From Blastocatellia bacterium NZW_1522 (lineage in GTDB: Bacteria > Acidobacteriota > Blastocatellia > Chloracidobacteriales > Chloracidobacteriaceae), in the NCBI GenBank assembly GCA_039793685.1, contig JBDRAL010000032.1:46193-110192 (forward strand): 64,000 bases of DNA. The letters run 5' to 3'. The translations under genes were made by a program, and so were the position numbers. Every line of letters starts with the position of its first letter. The first letter of the stretch is position 1. The notes under the pieces were generated by a model that was not told the origin of the DNA, searched no databases, and was given only the letters and a program-made list of their open reading frames with translations. Of the stretch, positions 7,634-47,503 are shown piece by piece.

Positions 7634-9448
7634 TCAGCAACGTTTCAAAACGATGGCCGTAATGTCGTCGTCGGGCAGACAGCCGGCGGTAAACTTGAGC
7701 GCCGATTCGACGAGAAATTCACAGGCTTCGCGGGCCGGGCGGTGAGCCTGCCGGAGAAAGAGCGTTTCGAGGTGCTGGTAGCCGAACAGTTCCTTGCGGG
7801 CGTTGGACGCCTCGACGATGCCGTCGCTGTAGAGCAGCAGCGAATCGCCGGGGTGCATGACGAAATGTTCGACCGGAAAATTGACCGTTGCCCGGGCGCC
7901 GAGCGGATAGGACCCGATTTCGATGCCGGAAACCACCCCATCCACGGCGCGGAAAAGGTACGGGAAGGGATGTCCCGCGTTCGACAGCGTGACCGCGCCG
8001 GTCTGGAAGTCGATGAGGGCGTAACAGAACGTCATCAGGTTGCGGCGCGAACCGTTTTCGTAAATCAGCGAGTTCATGGCGTTCATCACGCTCTGGACCT
8101 CGCTCGATGCGCCGAGCTGGTTGAGCAGGCCGCCTTTGGCGAGGGCCATCATGAGCCCCGATGAAATGCCGTGGCCGGTCACATCCCCGATGACGACGGC
8201 CATTTTGTTCGTCCCGACGCGGATGAAATCGTAGTAGTCGCCGCCGACGCCCGCCGCCGGACGCGACAGTCCGGCAATTTCGAATCCGGGGACCGTCGGG
8301 TCGCTGCGCGGCAGCATCGACGCCTGAATCCGCGCGGCCACGGCAATTTCTTCTTCGAGCCGCTGACGCTGGAGGCGTTCTTCGAGGAGACGGGCATTTT
8401 CAATCTTGATGGCTGCTACGCTGGAAATCGTCGTCAGCACTTCCAGGTCGGCGGGGGTGAAGCGACGGTCGTACGGATTTTCGATGTAAATCAGCCCGTG
8501 CAGATTTTCGCCGAGCGCCAGCGGTACGGCCATGACCGACCGCATGCCGCTCAACACGATGGATGCCTGACCGGCAAAGCGCGGGTCCTGCTGCGCGTTG
8601 GTCGTCAGCACCGCCGTCCGGGTCGTCAAAACCTGCTCGGTGATGTGGCGGCTGACCATCACGTCTTCCGGTTGGGTCATGCCCTTTTTGGTCCGGGCGA
8701 CCTTGCAGACCAGTTCAGGTTTTTCGCTTTCTTCACCGGCAACGCAGAGCATGAGGTAGCCGCGTTCGACCGGTAATGCCTCGAAGATGAGCGTCATGAC
8801 TTCTTCGAGAACGTCATCGAGTTCCGAGTTCGAAAGGAGCGCCACGCCCACCTTGCTGACGAGCGCCAGCAGATCGCGTTTCCCTTCGTGGATATTCGAA
8901 TTCGAGCCGAGTTCGGTGACTTCGCCGGGAGCGATACTGGACGCATTCGACGCGCTCGACCGGGCGAATTCCTGTGCCCGATTGAGAATTTCGTCGGTCG
9001 TCCGGACAAACCCCATCCCGATGGTCGCTTCCGGGACGGTTGCGGGGGAAGCATTGGAAAACGTGACGGCCTTGATTGGCGGGAGGTTCTGGCTCGGTTC
9101 GTCGGTGAGAAATTCGAGGTCGGTTTCCCCGATGCGAATGACGTCGCCCGATTTGAGATGAACCGGAGTCACCACGAGCGTGCCGTTGTGGTACGTCCCG
9201 TTGGCGCTTTTCAGGTCTTCGAGAATGTAGCCGTGGCGGTCGGCCTTGAGCGCGATGTGCAGCCGGGACGCGAAGGAATCCGGAATGGCAATGTCCGCAC
9301 GGACGCTGCGCCCGACCGTGCATTGCTGCCGGACGAGCATCACTTTTTGCGGCGGATAGCCGGGTGAGCGAATGATGAGCGAGTACATTGTTTCGACAGC
9401 CGTTCGAACCGTTCCGGTTTTCTGAAAATCCCCCGAGCGGGAATCCAC
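7634..9448 (-). CDS. FHA - GAF - PP2C (SpoIIE/RsbU-type) serine phosphatase
   Basis: FHA: CTVGRSVRADIAIPDSFASRLHIAL...LEDLKSANGTYHNG. Central GAF-like region. C-terminal GGDYYDF...GDVTGHG...LLLYSDG PP2C motifs. Start is GTG 9448 or ATG 9388. Confidence 0.85.
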   Translation of the reverse strand: MDSRSGDFQKTGTVRTAVETMYSLIIRSPGYPPQKVMLVRQQCTVGRSVRADIAIPDSFASRLHIALKADRHGYILEDLKSANGTYHNGTLVVTPVHLKSGDVIRIGETDLEFLTDEPSQNLPPIKAVTFSNASPATVPEATIGMGFVRTTDEILNRAQEFARSSASNASSIAPGEVTELGSNSNIHEGKRDLLALVSKVGVALLSNSELDDVLEEVMTLIFEALPVERGYLMLCVAGEESEKPELVCKVARTKKGMTQPEDVMVSRHITEQVLTTRTAVLTTNAQQDPRFAGQASIVLSGMRSVMAVPLALGENLHGLIYIENPYDRRFTPADLEVLTTISSVAAIKIENARLLEERLQRQRLEEEIAVAARIQASMLPRSDPTVPGFEIAGLSRPAAGVGGDYYDFIRVGTNKMAVVIGDVTGHGISSGLMMALAKGGLLNQLGASSEVQSVMNAMNSLIYENGSRRNLMTFCYALIDFQTGAVTLSNAGHPFPYLFRAVDGVVSGIEIGSYPLGARATVNFPVEHFVMHPGDSLLLYSDGIVEASNARKELFGYQHLETLFLRQAHRPAREACEFLVESALKFTAGCLPDDDITAIVLKRC

Positions 9449-9571
9449 GGCAGGGTAGCGAAAAACCGCCCCGACCGGAAGACGGTCACTCCTTCTTCCC
9501 CCTCTGTTTCAACCCGTTCCGAATTGGGACGAGGGGTTGCTTACGTTCCCGAACCGGATTGCGTTCGATTT

Positions 9572-10876
9572 TCAGTTCGCCGGTTTGTATGCCCAGACCC
9601 CTGAGCGACCTTCCTTCATTTCGGACAGGGTACAGACGAAGACGATGCCTTTGCTTTCGGCGATGGCCGAGCAATCCGTGGCCGGGAAAACTTCCGATTG
9701 CCGGACGATCTTCTGCCCCCGATAGTCAATGCCGACCAGCGAACTGTAGGAGATTGAATTCGGGAAGCCGGCCTGAACTTTCGAGCCCGAGCGGTCACCG
9801 TCGTAAACCTTGCGAAAATCGGGTCTCGTTTCGCGATAGGACGTCCACACGAGCGACCCGACCGGGATGTGCCCTTCGCGGCAATACGGGCCGAGTACCC
9901 CCTCCGCGCGCCAGATTTCCTTTCCCGAAAGTACGTCGAGTCCGAGAAAGGCGTAAAGCGTTTTGCCTTTCGCATCCTTGCCGGTGGCGGCGGCAATCAG
10001 GACGCCCTCCTGCATCGCAATGGCCTGACTGCACGGGGAGGCGGTCCATCTGACCGCGCCGGTTTTCAAATCGAGCGAGTACAGGGAATCGACCGCGAAG
10101 GTGGCCTTGCCGCTTCCTTCGGCGATGGTCGTCAGTTCCGAAACGACGAGATAGACGGCGTCTTTTTCAATCCGGCTCAATTTGACGGAATCATTCCGGT
10201 CGAAGGTCCAGAGCTGTTTGCCGGTGCTCCGGTCGTACCCGACGATGACGGTTCGCGTCGCGGTACCGTCGAGCCGCTGCGTTTTCAGAAGAACGACGGA
10301 ATCGTTGGCCCCGATGAGCGTTGCATTCTGGCGCGGGCCGAGTTGCGGGAGCGGCGTTGACCAGCGTTTTTTGCCGGTGGCGGCGTCCACCGCCGTGACG
10401 GTCGTTTTTTCGGTGACGAGGAACTTTTCAATACCGGAAATGACGAAGACGTCGTTTTCAAAGGAAACGAAATCGTCGGTCATTTCGGAAACGTCGAAGC
10501 CGGAGGTTTCCGCACCCGTCTTCGGGTCGGCGACGTGGACTTTTTTATTGAAATCGAGGGTAAAGAGTTTCCCGCCGGAAACGGCGAGGATGCGGGCATC
10601 CGATGAAGTCCGCGACCAGCGTTCCTTTCCCGTGGCGGCATCGAGTGCGTAGGTTTTGTATTCCGAATCCGGTTTTCCGGCGGTAAAACCGGCCAGAAAA
10701 AGTGTTCCGTCGGAAACGAGCGGTTGAGTGACCGAGGCAATCGGAGCAGTCCAGATCGGTTTGATTTCCTCGCCGACCCGGACAGGTTTGGAGAGCGTGC
10801 CGCCGCCGAGGCTACAGGCGGTCAAGCCAAAGGCCGCCGACAACGCGACGGCGAAATTCCGCAGGAATGAAGTCAT
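9572..10876 (-). CDS. PQQ-like beta-propeller lipoprotein (BamB-like fold), paralog A
   Basis: Lipobox LTAC. Repeated ...DAATGKERW / ...TGKKRW / ...TGKQLW / ...TGAVRW propeller blades. About 60 % identical by eye to the next ORF. Confidence 0.7.
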   Translation of the reverse strand: MTSFLRNFAVALSAAFGLTACSLGGGTLSKPVRVGEEIKPIWTAPIASVTQPLVSDGTLFLAGFTAGKPDSEYKTYALDAATGKERWSRTSSDARILAVSGGKLFTLDFNKKVHVADPKTGAETSGFDVSEMTDDFVSFENDVFVISGIEKFLVTEKTTVTAVDAATGKKRWSTPLPQLGPRQNATLIGANDSVVLLKTQRLDGTATRTVIVGYDRSTGKQLWTFDRNDSVKLSRIEKDAVYLVVSELTTIAEGSGKATFAVDSLYSLDLKTGAVRWTASPCSQAIAMQEGVLIAAATGKDAKGKTLYAFLGLDVLSGKEIWRAEGVLGPYCREGHIPVGSLVWTSYRETRPDFRKVYDGDRSGSKVQAGFPNSISYSSLVGIDYRGQKIVRQSEVFPATDCSAIAESKGIVFVCTLSEMKEGRSGVWAYKPAN

Positions 10877-41759: not shown

Positions 41760-41836
<77 letters not shown>

Positions 41837-42058: not shown

Positions 42059-42655
42059 ATGCACGTCCAAATCCCGGTCACGCAAAATCTCATGGTCGAG
42101 ACAATCGATAAAACCTTTGACACCATCCTCCACCATCTGGACGCCCGGGCGGTCGGAGAGGGCGGTGAGGGCCATGGAATGACCGAGGCGGACACTTTCC
42201 GGACGCTCAACTTTTCCCTGATGCTGAGTATTTCCCACTACATCGAGGATCGGTTTGTGGAAAAACGGCTGACCGGAATGTTTTTGGCGTCGTTTCAGAA
42301 ACTGTCGTTCTTCGTCGAGCAGCAGGCCCGATACTTGAACCTTGCCAAAACCGGCTCAAAGGTTATGGTCTTTGCCGAACCCGATATTCCGCCCCCGGTG
42401 TCCGCCGAACGGCTGACCTTTTACCGCCCCGCCCATGAGGATCTCGGCAAATTCTGGATCGTCCTGAGTGACGACCCGGAATTCAGAATCGCCCTCGCGG
42501 CCCGCGAGACGACCCCGGTTCGGGTATCCGGTGGCGGCGAGGGCAGTCGAAAAAGAAGTTTCGAGGGATTCTGGACCTATCGCGACGAGTATATCGACGC
42601 GATTCGTGACAGTATCTGCGGTTTTTACGTCGATCGGGCGTTCGAAATTTCCTGA
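42059..42655 (+). CDS. Stand-alone DICT-like sensory domain protein (tentative)
   Basis: FLASFQKLSFFVEQQARYLNLAKTGSKVMVFAEPD and WIVLSDDPEFRIALAARE resemble the DICT domain pattern as recalled. Converges on the Ubl gene. Confidence 0.45.
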   Translation: MHVQIPVTQNLMVETIDKTFDTILHHLDARAVGEGGEGHGMTEADTFRTLNFSLMLSISHYIEDRFVEKRLTGMFLASFQKLSFFVEQQARYLNLAKTGSKVMVFAEPDIPPPVSAERLTFYRPAHEDLGKFWIVLSDDPEFRIALAARETTPVRVSGGGEGSRKRSFEGFWTYRDEYIDAIRDSICGFYVDRAFEIS

Positions 42656-42670
42656 GTCGGGACAGGGCGT

Positions 42671-42922
42671 TCAGTCCCGACCACCCCGCGTATTGAGGAA
42701 AATGCTGATCGTGTCGCCGGAAACGATCCCGGCCTGGGCCAGCGTCTGTGCCGGGCGAAGTTGAAGATTCCGGAAGACGAGGGTTGTCCCCGGAACATTC
42801 GGAATCAAACCGGCATCGGCCAGATTCCGCAAAATGGCATCCGAGGTCATGTCGTCGGAAACCGTGACTTCGACTTCTTTCCCGTTGTTCTCGTTGCGAA
42901 AAGTGATATCGATGTCGGACAT
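42671..42922 (-). CDS. Ubiquitin-like beta-grasp protein with C-terminal ...RGG-RD
   Basis: 83 aa. Pattern is beta-beta-alpha-beta-beta: DIDITFRN / KEVEVTVSD / SDAILRNLADAGLI / TLVFRN / DTISIFLN. Codons checked by hand: ...I F L N T R G G R D stop. Lies next to the E1 gene. Confidence 0.65.
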   Translation of the reverse strand: MSDIDITFRNENNGKEVEVTVSDDMTSDAILRNLADAGLIPNVPGTTLVFRNLQLRPAQTLAQAGIVSGDTISIFLNTRGGRD

Positions 42923-42989
42923 CGTTGGTTCGTGCCAGGCCTCTCGTAAGGATTGGGGTCGGCGAATGCCGTGACTTCAAGAAAAATGT

Positions 42990-43304
42990 TCAGGCCGTCG
43001 TGTGATTGCACCGTCGGCAGAAACCGCTACCGCCATCGAAGCAATCCGCCTGATGGCAGATCTCGCAGCGGGCGGCGCGTTGCTCGCGTCTCACCATGAA
43101 AAGACCGGGCGAGGTGGATGTGGGCAGGAGCGGATAACTTTCCTGATGAAGCTGTTGGTACCGCCGCCGGGGAAGGAGAAAGTAGTCATCCCGGCCTTCC
43201 TCCTTGTCGCGGCGCGCCCGGTGCAGGTCGTAAAACTCGGTCGCGAATGAAACCGCGACCACGAGCATGAAAAATCCTGCCCCGAGAATTCCCAAAGCTT
43301 CCAT
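42990..43304 (-). CDS. Small membrane-anchored Cys/His-rich protein
   Basis: 104 aa. N-terminal TM ALGILGAGFFMLVVAVSFA. C-terminal CEICHQADCFDGGSGFCRRCNH. Strong GGAGGA 6 nt before the ATG, immediately after the E1 stop. Confidence 0.6.
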   Translation of the reverse strand: MEALGILGAGFFMLVVAVSFATEFYDLHRARRDKEEGRDDYFLLPRRRYQQLHQESYPLLPTSTSPGLFMVRREQRAARCEICHQADCFDGGSGFCRRCNHTTA

Positions 43305-43322
43305 CGGTTTCCTCCGCGTCGT

Positions 43323-44591
43323 TCAGGAAGTGGGTGAAAGTTCCCAGTCCTTCGAAAAAACCCCGTTAATGTCGTTCGACAGCTCGCAGGCAAAACGGTT
43401 TCCACCAGTGTCCGCGATGGTCAATATCTGCAAAGGCGGAATCCCGAGGTCACACAATCGTTTGGCGGCGATTTCATTTGAAACCGGTTCGCCGCCGAAG
43501 TTCCCCCGTGAAAATCCGGTGACGGCCTCAACGTAATCCGAACCGGCCACTTCCGGCAATCCTTCGCTGCCGTCGGGCCGCTGGTGACACTGCCCGCAAT
43601 TCAGTTCGTCATCGAAAATCCGGTGCGCGGGACGATCGAACGCAATCCAGTTTCCGCAATTTCGGCACCGGATGCGCCGGATGAAACGTGACCCAAGTTC
43701 CACCCGGACACCTTTTCCGAAACGACGTTCCAGTGTGTCGAGCAGTTCGCCGACCGTTGTTTCCCGCGCCGAGCAATCCAGTTCGACGATGTCCTCGAAT
43801 CGGCCGTGGGCAAGGCAGTGATCATCGGGGGGCAGGGTAATCCGGTGAAATCCATGAGTTGCGCCATTGTAGGCAAGCCGCACGCCGTACGCCACGGCCT
43901 CCCCGTGCAAAATTTTGACCGCCTCCTGCGCCTGAAGCGCCGAAACCAGCGCCGACGTGACCTGGACGGTTGGCATTCGCTCCTCCGCCACATACCGTTT
44001 TTTGACCTGTTCGCACGAATCGTACCGCGACTGGGCATCGGCGATCTGGTCCGCCGTCACCGTGCATTCGAAACAGGCCCCGGTATCGCCGTAGGTCGTG
44101 ACGCTTCCCGAGAGTTCGAAAATTCCGCCGTTGATCCAGGGTTTTCCGACCGACCGGGCCGCCCGGTTCATCGAAAGGCGGGCTTCGTCGTTGTCCACGC
44201 AGCCGAGAATCACGTCCATCCGGCGGTAAATGCCGAGGCCGAGTTCCCAGACGATATCGGCGTCGAGCGCGGTCACGACCGACGTCGTTTCAAGGGCCAT
44301 TTCGGTCGCGCGGGCGGCGGCGACCGAGGCTTTGCGCTTTCCGATGTCTTCCGGACGAAACAGGACCGTCCGGCTCAGGTTGGAAATCGAAATCGTGTCG
44401 AAATCGACCACCAGAATCCGCCCGACGCCGAGCAGGACGAGATTCTTTAAAACTTCATTGCCCAGCGCGCCCGCGCCGATGACCATCACGCGGGCGTTCC
44501 GAAGAACATCCTGTCGCCACCAGCCGATACGCGCCTGCCGGTCGAACGGCGTTTCGACGGCTTCGGCTTTCTCCCTGAATTCAAAAGACAT
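43323..44591 (-). CDS. E1-like ThiF/MoeB-superfamily adenylyltransferase with about 160-aa C-terminal extension
   Basis: VMVIGAGALGNEVLKNLVLLGVGRILVVDFDTISISNLSR (nucleotide site). CFEC at 173-176. Candidate catalytic Cys193 (YDSCEQ). Extra CRNC...CGQC pairs. Tail is RLCDLGIPPLQILTIADTGG. Confidence 0.8.
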   Translation of the reverse strand: MSFEFREKAEAVETPFDRQARIGWWRQDVLRNARVMVIGAGALGNEVLKNLVLLGVGRILVVDFDTISISNLSRTVLFRPEDIGKRKASVAAARATEMALETTSVVTALDADIVWELGLGIYRRMDVILGCVDNDEARLSMNRAARSVGKPWINGGIFELSGSVTTYGDTGACFECTVTADQIADAQSRYDSCEQVKKRYVAEERMPTVQVTSALVSALQAQEAVKILHGEAVAYGVRLAYNGATHGFHRITLPPDDHCLAHGRFEDIVELDCSARETTVGELLDTLERRFGKGVRVELGSRFIRRIRCRNCGNWIAFDRPAHRIFDDELNCGQCHQRPDGSEGLPEVAGSDYVEAVTGFSRGNFGGEPVSNEIAAKRLCDLGIPPLQILTIADTGGNRFACELSNDINGVFSKDWELSPTS

Positions 44592-44610
44592 AGCGGTTCG
44601 AATACGGAGG

Positions 44611-45417
44611 TTACTTGTTCTGAACCGTCATCTGACGGGTCGGGGCGGGGAAACCGGCTTCGCCGAAGGTTTCCTTGATGAGTTTGTTGGTGTCGAAAAA
44701 CACCTGCCAGTAATGATCATTGTGGCAGAAGGGCCGCACCGCCAGCACCGGCCCGAATTCCGTGAAATTCAGGATTTCCACCACCGGCGCGGGCGTGCCC
44801 ACGACGTTCGGGACCCGCTTCAGGGCTTCCTTTAAAAGCTGGATGGCGTGGTTGTGGTCCACCGCGCCGCTGATCTGGGCCACCAGGTCCACCCGACGGA
44901 AGGGATTGGCTGAAAAATTCTGGATGTTGTCCGAAAAAATCTTGTTGTTTCCGACGAAGGTCCGGATGTTGTCGGCGGTGTTGAGCGTCGTGGCGAACAG
45001 CCCGATTTCCTCGACCACCCCGGTCACGCCGCCCGCGCTGATCATGTCTCCGACTTTGAAGGGCCGCAAGAACAAGAGAAAGATTCCGGCGGCGAAGTTG
45101 GCGAGCAGGCCGCTCCACGCCGTCCCGATGGCGAACCCGGCGGCGGCGAGCAGCGCGGCGAAGGTTGTCGTCTGGACCCCGAAGTATCCGAGCAGCGCGA
45201 CGATGAGCGAAATGTTCAACAGTACCGAAACGGCCGACGACAGATAATTGGCCACTGTCGGATCGACCGTCTTCTTGGAAAGCGCGCGGTGGATGATTTT
45301 GGCGGCGAACTTGATGAGCATGCGCCCGACGAGCCACAAGACGATGGCGCCGAGCAGTTTCAGGCCGAAGGAGATGCCGACGGCGAGCAGTTGCTGTCCG
45401 AGTTTCGCGAAATCCAT
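44611..45417 (-). CDS. mscS: Small-conductance mechanosensitive channel (MscS family)
   Basis: Three TM helices, then FKVGDMISAGGVTGVVEEIGLFATTLNTADNIRTFVGNNKIF. ATG 45417 has GGAG 10 nt upstream. The track start 45555 adds 46 aa. Confidence 0.85.
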   Translation of the reverse strand: MDFAKLGQQLLAVGISFGLKLLGAIVLWLVGRMLIKFAAKIIHRALSKKTVDPTVANYLSSAVSVLLNISLIVALLGYFGVQTTTFAALLAAAGFAIGTAWSGLLANFAAGIFLLFLRPFKVGDMISAGGVTGVVEEIGLFATTLNTADNIRTFVGNNKIFSDNIQNFSANPFRRVDLVAQISGAVDHNHAIQLLKEALKRVPNVVGTPAPVVEILNFTEFGPVLAVRPFCHNDHYWQVFFDTNKLIKETFGEAGFPAPTRQMTVQNK

Positions 45418-45461
45418 TGAAAGGTTCTCCTGAATGAACGCCGGGCGCGAAAAGCGCCGTT

Positions 45462-46760
45462 GTGGCGATTCGAAAGGTACGACAACGCTTGCGGAACGGG
45501 TGGATGCCCGGCAATGTAAGATGCCTTCGCAACCGGCTGTCAAGCGCGGCGTCAAATCCGGGTTGGGCGACGGTGGACAAATTCTTCGTTTCGGAGTTTG
45601 AAGTGGAAAAAATCCGCAAACCCTTTCGGCCCCGGCGGCTGGCGGTCATCGGCATCACCCTCGCGATTCTCGTCGCCGTCGCCTGCGGCCCGACGCTCAA
45701 CCACGTCCGGGCGACGGTTCTTTTAATGCGTTTCGGCGGCATGGCGGTTCAGGACGTGCCCGCCGTGTTCGGAAACCGGCCCCTCAAGCGGGAAGAAGTG
45801 TCGTTTGACGGCCCCGAAGGTCCGGTGAAGGCAAGAATTTACTGGCCGGAAGGCGTTTCCGACCCGCCGGGCGTGGTGATGCTCCACGGTATTCACAAGG
45901 ACGGCTACACCGAACCCCGCATGGTCGCCTTCGCCGAGGCAGTTGCGGGCGCGGGCATCGCCGTGATGACGCCGACCATTCAGGAACTGGCGGATTACCG
46001 CGTTGACGCCGCCTCGGTCGCGACCATCGGATCGGCCGCGAAGTACTTCCGGAAAAAACTCAACAATCGCCGCGTCGGGCTGATGGGCATGTGTTTCGGC
46101 GGCGGTTTGTGCCTGATGACCGCCGGAAATCCGAAATTCTCCGACGATGTGGGATTTGTCACTGCCATCGGTTCGCACGACGATCTGGCGCGCATCGCCC
46201 GGTTTTTCGTCACGAATGAAATCGAACGACCCGATGGTTCAAAGTTGAAGCTCAACGCCGACCCGTACGGCCCGATGGTCATCGTCTACTCGCGGGTGAA
46301 CGACTTTTTCACCCCCGCCGACGCGCCGGTCGCGCGCGACGCGCTCCGTTTGTGGCTGTGGGGCGAGTTCGACAACGCGCGCAAAATGGCCGAAAAGCTC
46401 TCGCCGGAAGGAAAAAGCCGTATCGGAATCATTTTCGACGGCAAGTATCCGCAACTCGCGCCCGAAATGTTGAAGGTCATCGAGCAAAAGTCGAAGGAGA
46501 TGGCCGCCGTGTCGCCGGACGGTTTTTTAAAAGATGTCAAAGTGCCGGTTTTTCTGCTCCACGGGGCGCACGACAACGTCGTTCCGCCCTCCGAATCGCT
46601 CTGGCTGGAACGCGGGTTAAAAGCGAACGGGAAGGTACACACGCTGGTCAGCCCGGCGGTCGGCCACGTCGAAATGGCCGCCGACACGACGGTTGGCGAC
46701 AAATGGGAGGTGATTCACTTCCTCGCGCAAATCGTGGACACGGCCAAAGGCGCGAAGTGA
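45462..46760 (+). CDS. Membrane-anchored dienelactone-hydrolase-family alpha/beta hydrolase
   Basis: TM LAVIGITLAILVAVACG. Nucleophile elbow GMCFGG. LLHGAHDNVVP. GHVEM. Start uncertain: GTG 45462, ATG 45504 or GTG 45573. Confidence 0.7.
   Translation: MAIRKVRQRLRNGWMPGNVRCLRNRLSSAASNPGWATVDKFFVSEFEVEKIRKPFRPRRLAVIGITLAILVAVACGPTLNHVRATVLLMRFGGMAVQDVPAVFGNRPLKREEVSFDGPEGPVKARIYWPEGVSDPPGVVMLHGIHKDGYTEPRMVAFAEAVAGAGIAVMTPTIQELADYRVDAASVATIGSAAKYFRKKLNNRRVGLMGMCFGGGLCLMTAGNPKFSDDVGFVTAIGSHDDLARIARFFVTNEIERPDGSKLKLNADPYGPMVIVYSRVNDFFTPADAPVARDALRLWLWGEFDNARKMAEKLSPEGKSRIGIIFDGKYPQLAPEMLKVIEQKSKEMAAVSPDGFLKDVKVPVFLLHGAHDNVVPPSESLWLERGLKANGKVHTLVSPAVGHVEMAADTTVGDKWEVIHFLAQIVDTAKGAK
45514..45543 (-). 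promoter_or_regulatory. Candidate promoter for the mscS-E1-Ubl operon
   Basis: Minus strand: TTGACA (45543-45538), 18-nt spacer, TTACAT (45519-45514). Confidence 0.3.
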
Positions 46761-46843: not shown

Positions 46844-47503
46844 ATGTCGCAGGGACAGTATTTCGAAGCCGATCACGTCACGCCGGAACAACTCGATACG
46901 CTCTGGGCGTTCGGCTGGCGTCATTTCGGCACCTATTTTTTTCGCTACTGGAGCAACTACACGCCGAAGGGGCTGTGCCACGTCATGCCTCTGCGTCTCA
47001 ATCTGTCGAGTTTTCAACCGTCCGACAGTCATCGGCGCATCTCAAGGAAAAACAAAGACTTACGGGTAGTAATCCGGGAAACCGACATTTCCGACGAAAT
47101 CGAGGCACTGTTTTTCCGTCACCGGCAGCGATTCACCCACAACGTTCCGGAGTCCATCCACACCTTCCTGTCGTTCTACCCGGCAACGATTCCCTGTGAA
47201 AACCGCGAGGTGGCGGTCTATGACGGCGACCGGCTGGTAGCCGTCAGTTTTCTCGACCTCGGCCACAAGGCCACGTCGAGCGTCTACGGCGTGTTCGACC
47301 CCGATTACTCGAAACGCAGCCTCGGGATTTTCACGATGCTTGAGGAAATCCGTTTCAGCCAGGAACGCGGCGGGACGTACTACTACCCCGGCTACGCCTA
47401 CCACGAACCCTCCCACTACGACTACAAAAAGCGCTTTCGCGGTCTGGAATACTTCGACTGGGAAGGCGGCTGGAATCCACTGACGGACGAAGGAAAATCG
47501 TAA
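46844..47503 (+). CDS. Arginyl/leucyl-tRNA--protein transferase family protein (ATE/Bpt-like)
   Basis: LDTLWAFGWRHFGTYFFRY, FQPSDSHRRISRKNKDL, SSVYGVFDPDYSKRSLGIFTMLEEIRFSQERGGTYYYPGYAYHEPSHYDYKKRFRGLEYFDW. Confidence 0.65.
   Translation: MSQGQYFEADHVTPEQLDTLWAFGWRHFGTYFFRYWSNYTPKGLCHVMPLRLNLSSFQPSDSHRRISRKNKDLRVVIRETDISDEIEALFFRHRQRFTHNVPESIHTFLSFYPATIPCENREVAVYDGDRLVAVSFLDLGHKATSSVYGVFDPDYSKRSLGIFTMLEEIRFSQERGGTYYYPGYAYHEPSHYDYKKRFRGLEYFDWEGGWNPLTDEGKS

Follow-up and report, generated by a model that had tools for sequence, protein, structure and literature searches.

A stretch of 64,000 nt from Blastocatellia bacterium NZW_1522 (assembly GCA_039793685.1, contig JBDRAL010000032.1, positions 46,193-110,192 of the forward strand; hereafter the window) carries closely spaced genes for an E1-type activating enzyme, a small membrane protein and a ubiquitin-like protein (Ubl). 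A first-pass annotation had read these genes, together with an adjoining MscS channel gene, as a candidate non-canonical ubiquitin-like system with neither an E2 conjugating enzyme nor a JAB peptidase. This raises the question whether the locus is a system complete in itself or one part of a larger one. Our analysis favours the latter. With a probability of about 78% the locus represents the E1/membrane zinc-finger/Ubl half of a eukaryote-like ubiquitin-type system which is distributed over two loci and inherited vertically in Blastocatellia and Chloracidobacterium-type Acidobacteriota. The three genes, in positions of the window, are:

42671-42922, minus strand: Ubl gene, 83 amino acids (aa)
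42990-43304, minus strand: gene of a membrane Cys protein with transmembrane (TM) helix and zinc finger (TM/Zn), 104 aa
43323-44591, minus strand: E1 gene, 422 aa

E2 and JAB genes in related genomes

The window was searched for E2 and JAB genes using hidden Markov models (HMMs) from related loci (--max, E up to 50), whereby the best match reached only E = 0.95. The annotated absence of both genes is thus correct for the whole 64 kb. It does not extend to the lineage, in which both are present, either at a second locus or within one contiguous operon.

The contiguous form is found on an acidobacterial contig of low G+C (L007) with five tightly packed genes and unambiguous open reading frames (ORFs). 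The encoded proteins are the E1 (422 aa), the TM/Zn protein (98 aa), a Ubl with the end LNTRGGA, the E2 (197 aa) and the JAB protein (243 aa). Using this E2 as query, 21 homologues of 68-96% identity were retrieved, including proteins of Blastocatellia and Chloracidobacterium. In these two groups the E2 gene is located at a second locus, divergent from a ubiE-like methyltransferase gene. A JAB gene with intact JAMM motif directly follows E2 in Blastocatellia metagenome-assembled genomes (MAGs; L086, L088), and also in L007 and L008. At the Chloracidobacterium locus (L099/L100, 6567-7520) E2 and the start of a MauE-family gene overlap, at the place where the Blastocatellia MAGs have JAB; no JAB gene was found there within the 12 kb examined.

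Both halves can be traced to the same genome. In GCA_019695185.1 the order E1-TM/Zn-Ubl-rpsA is found on JAIBAN010000009.1 and E2-JAB on JAIBAN010000088.1. For C. thermophilum, E1 (L002, CP072632.1) and E2 (WP_014099010.1, already named 'ubiquitin-conjugating enzyme E2' by NCBI) are both recorded on a contig of 2,704,697 bp, and the CP2_5A MAG likewise contains an E1 (CFK52_10495) and an E2 (CFK52_07635). The stretch IFHPHVWPDGK[V/I]CIG is kept in the E2s and can be aligned to UBE2D2, where it corresponds to the HPN motif and catalytic Cys; the JAB proteins keep H-x-H-x7-S-x2-D. Among the matches listed, the nearest solved relatives of the L007 E2 are UBE2T, UBE2A and UBC9, those of the L007 JAB are Rpn11, CSN5 and the Caldiarchaeum Rpn11 homologue. 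Since E2 occupies a second locus in related genomes, "no E2, no JAB" is true of the locus and not of the lineage, and we infer that the E2 of the genome behind the window is likewise encoded at a second locus.

The E1 family across phyla

To place this layout we used a scan of species-representative genomes, which yielded 80 loci with this E1 family; 84 loci entered the count of E2 and JAB genes, and later loci were added for the table of gene orders. The HMMs used for the count were built iteratively from a clean low-GC locus of Kordia (L012). According to Pfam this locus encodes an E1, a Ubl, a UQ_con E2, two JAB proteins and a Prok-RING_1-like protein; it is flanked by TIR and WYL genes. 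Of the 84 loci, 70 have an E2 gene next to E1 and 67 a JAB gene, which speaks against the reading as a non-canonical system devoid of both. The gene orders are:

E1 > TM-RING > Ubl-E2 fusion > Ubl > JAB: at least 32 loci, mostly Chloroflexota
E1 > Ubl > E2 > JAB (> E2-like+JAB > RING): about 20 loci, several phyla
E1 > TM/Zn > Ubl > E2 > JAB: 2 loci, the acidobacterial L007 and L008
E1 > TM/Zn > Ubl only: 11 loci, the window and its kin
E1 alone: 10 loci, mostly Cytophagales-type Bacteroidota

The E1-TM/Zn-Ubl triad itself, whose synteny had been proposed for checking, is kept in 13 of 13 acidobacterial loci. Over its full length the E1 of the window shows 36-46% identity to the E1s of loci with E2, JAB and RING genes.

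The Chloroflexota operon (L042, 9584-15928, and ~30 others) reads E1, multi-TM Prok-RING_1-like protein, Ubl-E2 fusion, Ubl, JAB, TM-FHA and vWA. Genes for FHA and vWA proteins are found repeatedly, in 31-32 loci. The E1 of L042 has an N-terminal GntR-like extension, and the free Ubl of Chloroflexota ends with TAG or ITAG and has no tail. Inspection by eye of L007 revealed genes for an FHA plus zinc-ribbon protein, a PP2C phosphatase and a histidine kinase (7715-9853, minus strand) upstream of the operon and divergent from it, and a 355-aa coiled-coil protein downstream. The FHA, PP2C and kinase genes of L007, taken with the FHA and vWA genes of Chloroflexi, hint at a link with phospho-signalling. 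The loci L003, L004, L009, L010, L013 and L024 (e.g. Hugenholtzia, Bernardetia) have a full-length E1 with the presumed catalytic Cys, and no Ubl, E2 or JAB was detectable within the E1 flanks. In Hugenholtzia the E1 adjoins a SiaC-family gene. These loci, most of them of Cytophagales type, may contain orphan E1s or E1s with unrecognised partners.

The 83-aa protein resembles a ubiquitin precursor

Two elements at the C-terminus of the Ubl are of particular relevance:

42680-42685, minus strand: codons of G80-G81, the end of the core L-N-T-R-G80-G81; RGG is conserved in homologues
42674-42679, minus strand: two-residue tail R-D following Gly81

The protein matches Pfam Rad60-SLD with 27.4 bits (cut-off 23.8 bits). 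Its AlphaFold2 (AF2) model is a beta-grasp fold with a predicted local distance difference test score (pLDDT) of 88, and the best structural matches in the PDB are ubiquitins with TM-scores of 0.76-0.87, that of Caldiarchaeum subterraneum included. The profile of the family can be aligned to the C-terminal half of ubiquitin, RGG included. The first reading, by which the product is a beta-grasp protein ending RGG plus two extra residues, is therefore confirmed as to the fold. Up to an invariant LNTRGG the homologues (n=25) show 75-93% identity; the tails that follow are unrelated, 1 to ~20 residues in length, and long in Chloracidobacterium. The protein contains a single lysine, the invariant K15. 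Going by sequence and model, the 83-aa protein is most plausibly a ubiquitin-type modifier made as a precursor; as the tail follows the GG, a processing peptidase would be required.

The degree of conservation differs strongly between the components. The values of amino acid identity are:

Window versus relatives other than L005: E1 54-61%, TM/Zn protein 43-50%, Ubl core 79-93%
L007 genome versus GCA_019695185.1: E1 53%, TM/Zn protein 35%, Ubl core 79%, E2 71%, JAB 46%

In these comparisons Ubl and E2 appear as the most constrained parts and E1 and the deubiquitinase (DUB) as less constrained, a pattern like that of eukaryotic ubiquitin. Both Ubl and E2 are seemingly under very strong purifying selection. 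L005 (JAYRXR010000179.1) is the closest relative of the window, with an E1 of 91% identity, a Ubl core of 100% identity and the same synteny of MscS, hydrolase and arginyl/leucyl-tRNA-protein transferase (ATE) genes. It was deposited as 'Actinomycetota bacterium'. Its gene order is that of Chloracidobacterium and Blastocatellia, hence the label of this MAG is probably wrong.

The E1 enzyme

The E1 consists of a single adenylation domain (Pfam ThiF, residues 20-259, window 43815-44534, E = 4e-50) and a family-specific C-terminal domain. Its features were evaluated by aligning 89 homologues, which come from Acidobacteriota, Bacteroidota, Gemmatimonadota, Planctomycetota, KSB1 and other groups:

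44460-44477, minus strand: nucleotide-binding loop G39-A-G41-A-L-G44; G39, G41 and G44 invariant
44064-44075, minus strand: C173-x2-C176 pair; C173, C176 and C259 invariant, H262 at least 90% conserved
44013-44015, minus strand: Cys193 of the crossover loop in the motif R-Y-D-S-C; invariant in 89/89 sequences from many phyla
43326-43802, minus strand: C-terminal domain (aa 264-422), alpha/beta with embedded zinc ribbon C309-x2-C312 and C332-x2-C335

D133, N134 and R138 are invariant as well, and the Mg/ATP residues are invariant or nearly so. The nucleotide site, CxxC pair and crossover-loop Cys, all noted on first reading, are indeed without exception in this alignment. In the C-terminal ribbon, invariance is seen for C309 and C332 and a conservation of at least 90% for C312 and C335. 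MoeB and ThiF carry a Cys4 zinc site; by analogy, C173-x2-C176 with C259 and H262 is presumed to be a structural zinc site. Cys193 is presumed, from its conservation, to be the catalytic, thioester-forming cysteine. It is located in the only flexible stretch of the adenylation domain with lower confidence in the AF2 model (pLDDT ~70 at residues 190-210). The model as a whole has a pLDDT of 91.9 and a predicted TM-score (pTM) of 0.90, with the C-terminal domain confidently modelled.

Foldseek superimposes the core of the model best on ThiF and MoeB, also on UBA5, while UBA3 is aligned to the E1 as a whole (~455 columns). In the list of PDB sequence matches the active adenylation domains of eukaryotic Uba1 rank nearest (E = 8e-26), and MoeB reaches 1e-18. 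The NCBIfam equivalog models of ThiF, MoeB, MoeZ and UbaA are missed by far (TIGR02356 120.9 versus a cut-off of 275.25; NF004281 99.2 versus 266; UbaA, NF047750, 90.6 versus 450 bits). Pfam indicates no rhodanese domain in the E1. A profile of the C-terminal domain gave no significant match in the PDB, only insignificant zinc-ribbon matches, and Foldseek on the full-length protein is dominated by the adenylation core. From its location, which is that of the ubiquitin-fold domain (UFD) in other E1s, the C-terminal domain is a candidate for E2 docking.

The membrane zinc-finger protein

In the 104-aa protein an N-terminal TM helix is followed by a basic cytoplasmic linker and the C-terminal motif RCE[IV]CHQxD-x8-CxRC:

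43230-43298, minus strand: N-terminal TM helix, ~aa 3-25
43008-43067, minus strand: C-terminal zinc finger R79-C80-E-I-C83-H84-Q-x-D87...C96-R-R-C99

No match was obtained with Pfam, NCBIfam or PADLOC, and none to Prok-RING in particular. Homologues lie between E1 and Ubl in 13/13 acidobacterial loci. Conservation within the family is limited to H84, Q85, D87 and the cysteines of the two CxxC pairs. Four conserved cysteines account for one zinc site; a binuclear RING, the treble clef of RING-type E3 ligases, is accordingly not what this protein contains.

A comparison using hhalign aligned the finger with the second half of the Chloroflexi TM-RING (probability 80.5%, E = 1.3e-5, 21 columns). 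As short Cys-rich motifs align readily, this match is suggestive only. Both genes are found at the same place directly after E1, and both proteins have the same topology with TM segments at the N-terminus and a cytoplasmic zinc domain at the C-terminus. One might speculate that the 104-aa protein is an E3-like adaptor or localiser standing in for the TM-RING.

An exhaustive HMMER search retrieved 61 relatives of the 104-aa protein, most of which share only the finger of 35 residues (consensus F-x-V-[KR]-x5-RCE[IV]CHQxDxFDxxTGxCxRC), placed N- or C-terminal to TM segments. When 43 distant relatives were compared to Pfam, no family was assigned beyond a few generic zinc ribbons. Judging from these relatives, the finger seems to be an unannotated membrane-associated domain. 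It occurs in diverse small membrane proteins (P0171, P0173, P0185, P0192, P0208 and others), in P0171 as a tandem repeat and in one protein joined to an AhpC/TSA domain; at L101 (6001-6696) it is encoded by a stand-alone gene among SLH and surface-protein genes.

Proposed pathway

Following the two-locus reading, the Ubl precursor would be cut after Gly81 to expose Gly-Gly, likely by the Rpn11-like JAMM peptidase, comparable to the trimming described for CsRpn11 (PMC6043591) and BilC (bioRxiv 10.1101/2023.09.26.559546). The E1, which with its single adenylation domain probably acts as a homodimer, would then adenylate Gly81, and the Ubl would move to Cys193 as thioester, as the invariant residues suggest. 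From there it would be handed over to the catalytic Cys of the UBC-fold E2 encoded at the second locus by the ubiE-like methyltransferase gene. Finally the Ubl would be joined to lysines of target proteins, a modification that the JAMM peptidase may undo. The 104-aa protein could, as a speculation, present its zinc finger on the inside of the cytoplasmic membrane and serve as E3-like adaptor or localiser.

Alternative explanations

The lack of E2 and JAB in the window could also be taken at face value. In that case both genes would have been lost from the lineage rather than relocated, and the E1 alone would activate the Ubl for conjugation or for use as a sulfur carrier, making up a self-sufficient E2-independent system of the SAMP/UbaA, TtuB/TtuC or Urm1/Uba4 type. 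Neither gene occurs in the 64-kb window or the 21 kb searched of L005, partial erosion is visible in Chloracidobacterium with its JAB missing beside E2, and ten Cytophagales-type loci have this E1 family with no partner detectable nearby. Nevertheless every checkable genome with the split layout keeps a highly conserved E2 with intact catalytic motif, and the E1 of the window retains the C-terminal domain common to its E2-linked relatives. Moreover the UbaA, MoeB and ThiF equivalogs are missed widely, a rhodanese domain is lacking, genes for ThiG, MoaE, CysM or tRNA thiolation were not found adjacent, and the Ubl tail past the GG would still need a processing peptidase. An E2-independent system is hence unlikely. 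A further reading is a cofactor sulfur carrier of the ThiS/MoaD plus ThiF/MoeB kind, the function implied where JGI and NCBI name relatives 'molybdopterin-synthase adenylyltransferase' or 'ThiF family'. The structural core of the E1 does superimpose best on ThiF and MoeB. However all ThiF and MoeB equivalog cut-offs are missed, the E1 sequence has Uba1 as a nearer relative than MoeB, matches of the Ubl are to ubiquitin and SUMO and not to ThiS or MoaD, its chain continues after the GG, and the genomic partners of the family are E2, JAB and RING genes. Equivalog scores and gene context effectively refute this reading, which we consider extremely improbable; the earlier distinction of the pair from ThiS/MoaD sulfur carriers was justified.

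An anti-phage defence module similar to Bil or Bub, tagging phage proteins with the Ubl, is another candidate. The same E1 family occurs elsewhere in islands with TIR and WYL genes, as in Kordia, and a defence role has been predicted for uncharacterised E1/E2/RING/DUB operons (bioRxiv 10.1101/2023.09.26.559546). Here both loci are embedded in conserved core synteny (rpsA, ubiE) at native G+C, and the apparent strong purifying selection on Ubl and E2 is unlike fast-evolving defence genes. The matches in PADLOC are only partial and of the generic Rossmann-fold kind (BilD E = 1.5e-8, residues 34-144), and Bil differs in gene order, in the architecture of its E1 and in the E2 motif. A defence module is therefore rather improbable.

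The two-locus reading has its own weak points. The window lacks E2 and JAB, and its E2 is deduced from relatives whose E1s are at most 61% identical; L005, the relative at 91%, contributes only 21 kb, in which neither gene is found. Chloracidobacterium has no JAB beside E2 and a MauE-like membrane protein there instead. The E3-like role of the 104-aa protein builds on gene position, topology and the 21-column Cys-rich match, and the same zinc-finger motif is also present in membrane proteins outside any Ubl operon. The searchable literature contains no biochemical data for any bacterial member of this family.

Possible function and implications

Since both loci occupy core-genome positions, with conserved synteny to rpsA and ubiE and to the DICT gene in part of the clade, a physiological role is suggested rather than one in defence. 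A bolder proposal, which we put forward tentatively and hold to be doubtful in its full form, is a vertically inherited, non-defence ubiquitination with a housekeeping task, in which Ubl and E2 are constrained like their eukaryotic counterparts and conjugation is organised at the cytoplasmic membrane by a minimal single-TM four-Cys zinc-finger E3 or adaptor of a new kind, replacing the RING. If true, the constraint on Ubl and E2 would imply many interaction partners, and the 104-aa protein could be a minimal E3. The clade might be useful as a model as it includes cultured and sequenced Chloracidobacterium species. For genome scans in general, E2 and JAB missing from one locus, even over 64 kb, is no proof that a system lacks them.

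Gene neighbourhood

Two further genes directly adjoin the triad:

44611-45555 (ORF), minus strand: MscS gene, three MscS Pfam domains
42059-42655, plus strand: gene of a DICT-domain sensory protein, convergent with the Ubl gene, 15 nt past the Ubl stop

The ORF list agrees with the initial description of four minus-strand genes with gaps of 67 (Ubl-TM/Zn), 18 (TM/Zn-E1) and 19 nt (E1-MscS). The MscS Pfam domains start at residue 57, consistent with an ATG start at 45417, which is probably the genuine one. Likewise the G+C content was rightly regarded as native (0.577 at the locus compared to 0.53-0.63 over the window). The picture of a module bracketed by two membrane proteins has to be revised, as the 104-aa gene sits between the E1 and Ubl genes. 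Nor can MscS be upheld as a module member: it is a neighbour only in the window and L005, and the upstream position is taken elsewhere by ExbB/ExbD plus a 286-aa protein (Chloracidobacterium) or by CinA (other Blastocatellia). No terminator-like site was predicted between any of the four genes, and such sites were fewer than in shuffled sequence, which fits co-transcription of the four genes and is no proof of it. MscS is an incidental upstream neighbour, possibly co-transcribed.

The DICT gene was likewise rejected as a core member. It is the convergent neighbour in the window, L005 and all Chloracidobacterium loci, and is absent from L094, L095 and L007. E1-TM/Zn-Ubl is followed by rpsA in the window, L005, Chloracidobacterium and L094. 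In the window a tRNA-Gly(GCC) gene (41760-41834, minus strand) is located between rpsA and the DICT gene. On the other side, 2.3 kb upstream of E1 and past MscS and an alpha/beta hydrolase gene, a 219-aa protein with ATE_N and ATE_C domains is encoded (46844-47503, plus strand), i.e. an ATE, an enzyme of the N-end rule. The arrangement is the same in L005 and is not conserved in other relatives; a functional link of the ATE gene to the Ubl system is possible.

Comparison with known systems

Operons for an E1 with C-terminal UFD, a UBC-type E2, RING, JAB and Ubl were reportedly predicted in prokaryotes by the comparative genomics of Burroughs, Iyer and Aravind (2011, Mol Biosyst). The E1 of the window, with its ThiF domain, crossover Cys and C-terminal extension, and the Ubl, with its beta-grasp fold, conserved Gly and precursor form, show the traits of this eukaryote-like class. 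In the literature found, only CBASS, Bil, Bub and the archaeal Caldiarchaeum systems have been studied biochemically so far. The operon of Caldiarchaeum subterraneum has been reconstituted (PMC5654768, PMC6043591), and bacterial operons of the eukaryote-like type are mentioned as uncharacterised (bioRxiv 10.1101/2023.09.26.559546; PMC5654768).

Bil systems likewise comprise Ubl, E2, JAB-type DUB and E1, and their Ubl has a conserved glycine and, after it, a variable tail that is cut by the DUB. They are organised in the order Ubl-E2-DUB-E1 with a CEHH-type E2, and their E1 has an inactive and an active adenylation domain, a CYS insertion and no UFD (bioRxiv 10.1101/2023.09.26.559546). In contrast, the order here starts with E1, which has one adenylation domain and a C-terminal domain, and the E2 of the clade carries a canonical HPN-like motif (HPH...C, as aligned to UBE2D2). 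Solved Bil structures are neither among the best 60 PDB matches listed for the E1 nor among those listed for E2 and JAB. Membership in Bil was rejected, the PADLOC match to BilD being weak and partial (111 residues). CBASS Cap2, 6A-MBL and Bub, in which the E1 is fused to an E2 or a JAB and has a DUF6527 protease or a CD-NTase as partner, were rejected as well, as the E1 of the window is unfused; the matches to PADLOC 'E1-E2' and NCBIfam cap2_3 are confined to its Rossmann part (~60-130 residues).

Archaeal SAMP/UbaA, TtuB/TtuC of Thermus and eukaryotic Urm1/Uba4 are E2-independent and serve both as sulfur carriers and in conjugation. They share with the window a compact pair of E1 and Ubl, no E2 in the locus and, as presumed for the window, a JAMM peptidase encoded elsewhere. 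They differ in that the lineage described here keeps a dedicated UBC-type E2, its E1 has no rhodanese domain and falls below the UbaA cut-off, and, compared to SAMP/UbaA and the Urm1 type, its Ubl resembles ubiquitin rather than MoaD or Urm1. Assignment to the SAMP/UbaA type is thus opposed by the missed UbaA equivalog and the retained E2, and assignment to the ThiF/MoeB-ThiS/MoaD pairs by the equivalog scores, with ThiG, MoaE and CysM not found adjacent.

The closest correspondence is therefore with the eukaryote-like operons. E1s of the same family are embedded in E1-Ubl-E2-JAB(-RING) operons of many bacterial phyla, the nearest solved relatives of E1, E2, JAB and Ubl are eukaryotic and Caldiarchaeum proteins, and the Ubl, like that of Caldiarchaeum (CsUb), is made with a tail past the terminal glycine. 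Within this class the acidobacterial form is distinct: its genes are divided into E1-TM/Zn-Ubl and E2(-JAB) loci, which occupy conserved core positions instead of sporadic islands, it has a zinc-finger protein of ~100 aa with a single TM helix and four Cys and no binuclear RING, and its Ubl and E2 are unusually conserved. Taken together, the split into two loci, a TM zinc finger in place of the RING and a strongly conserved Ubl and E2 are what is new compared to the described class.

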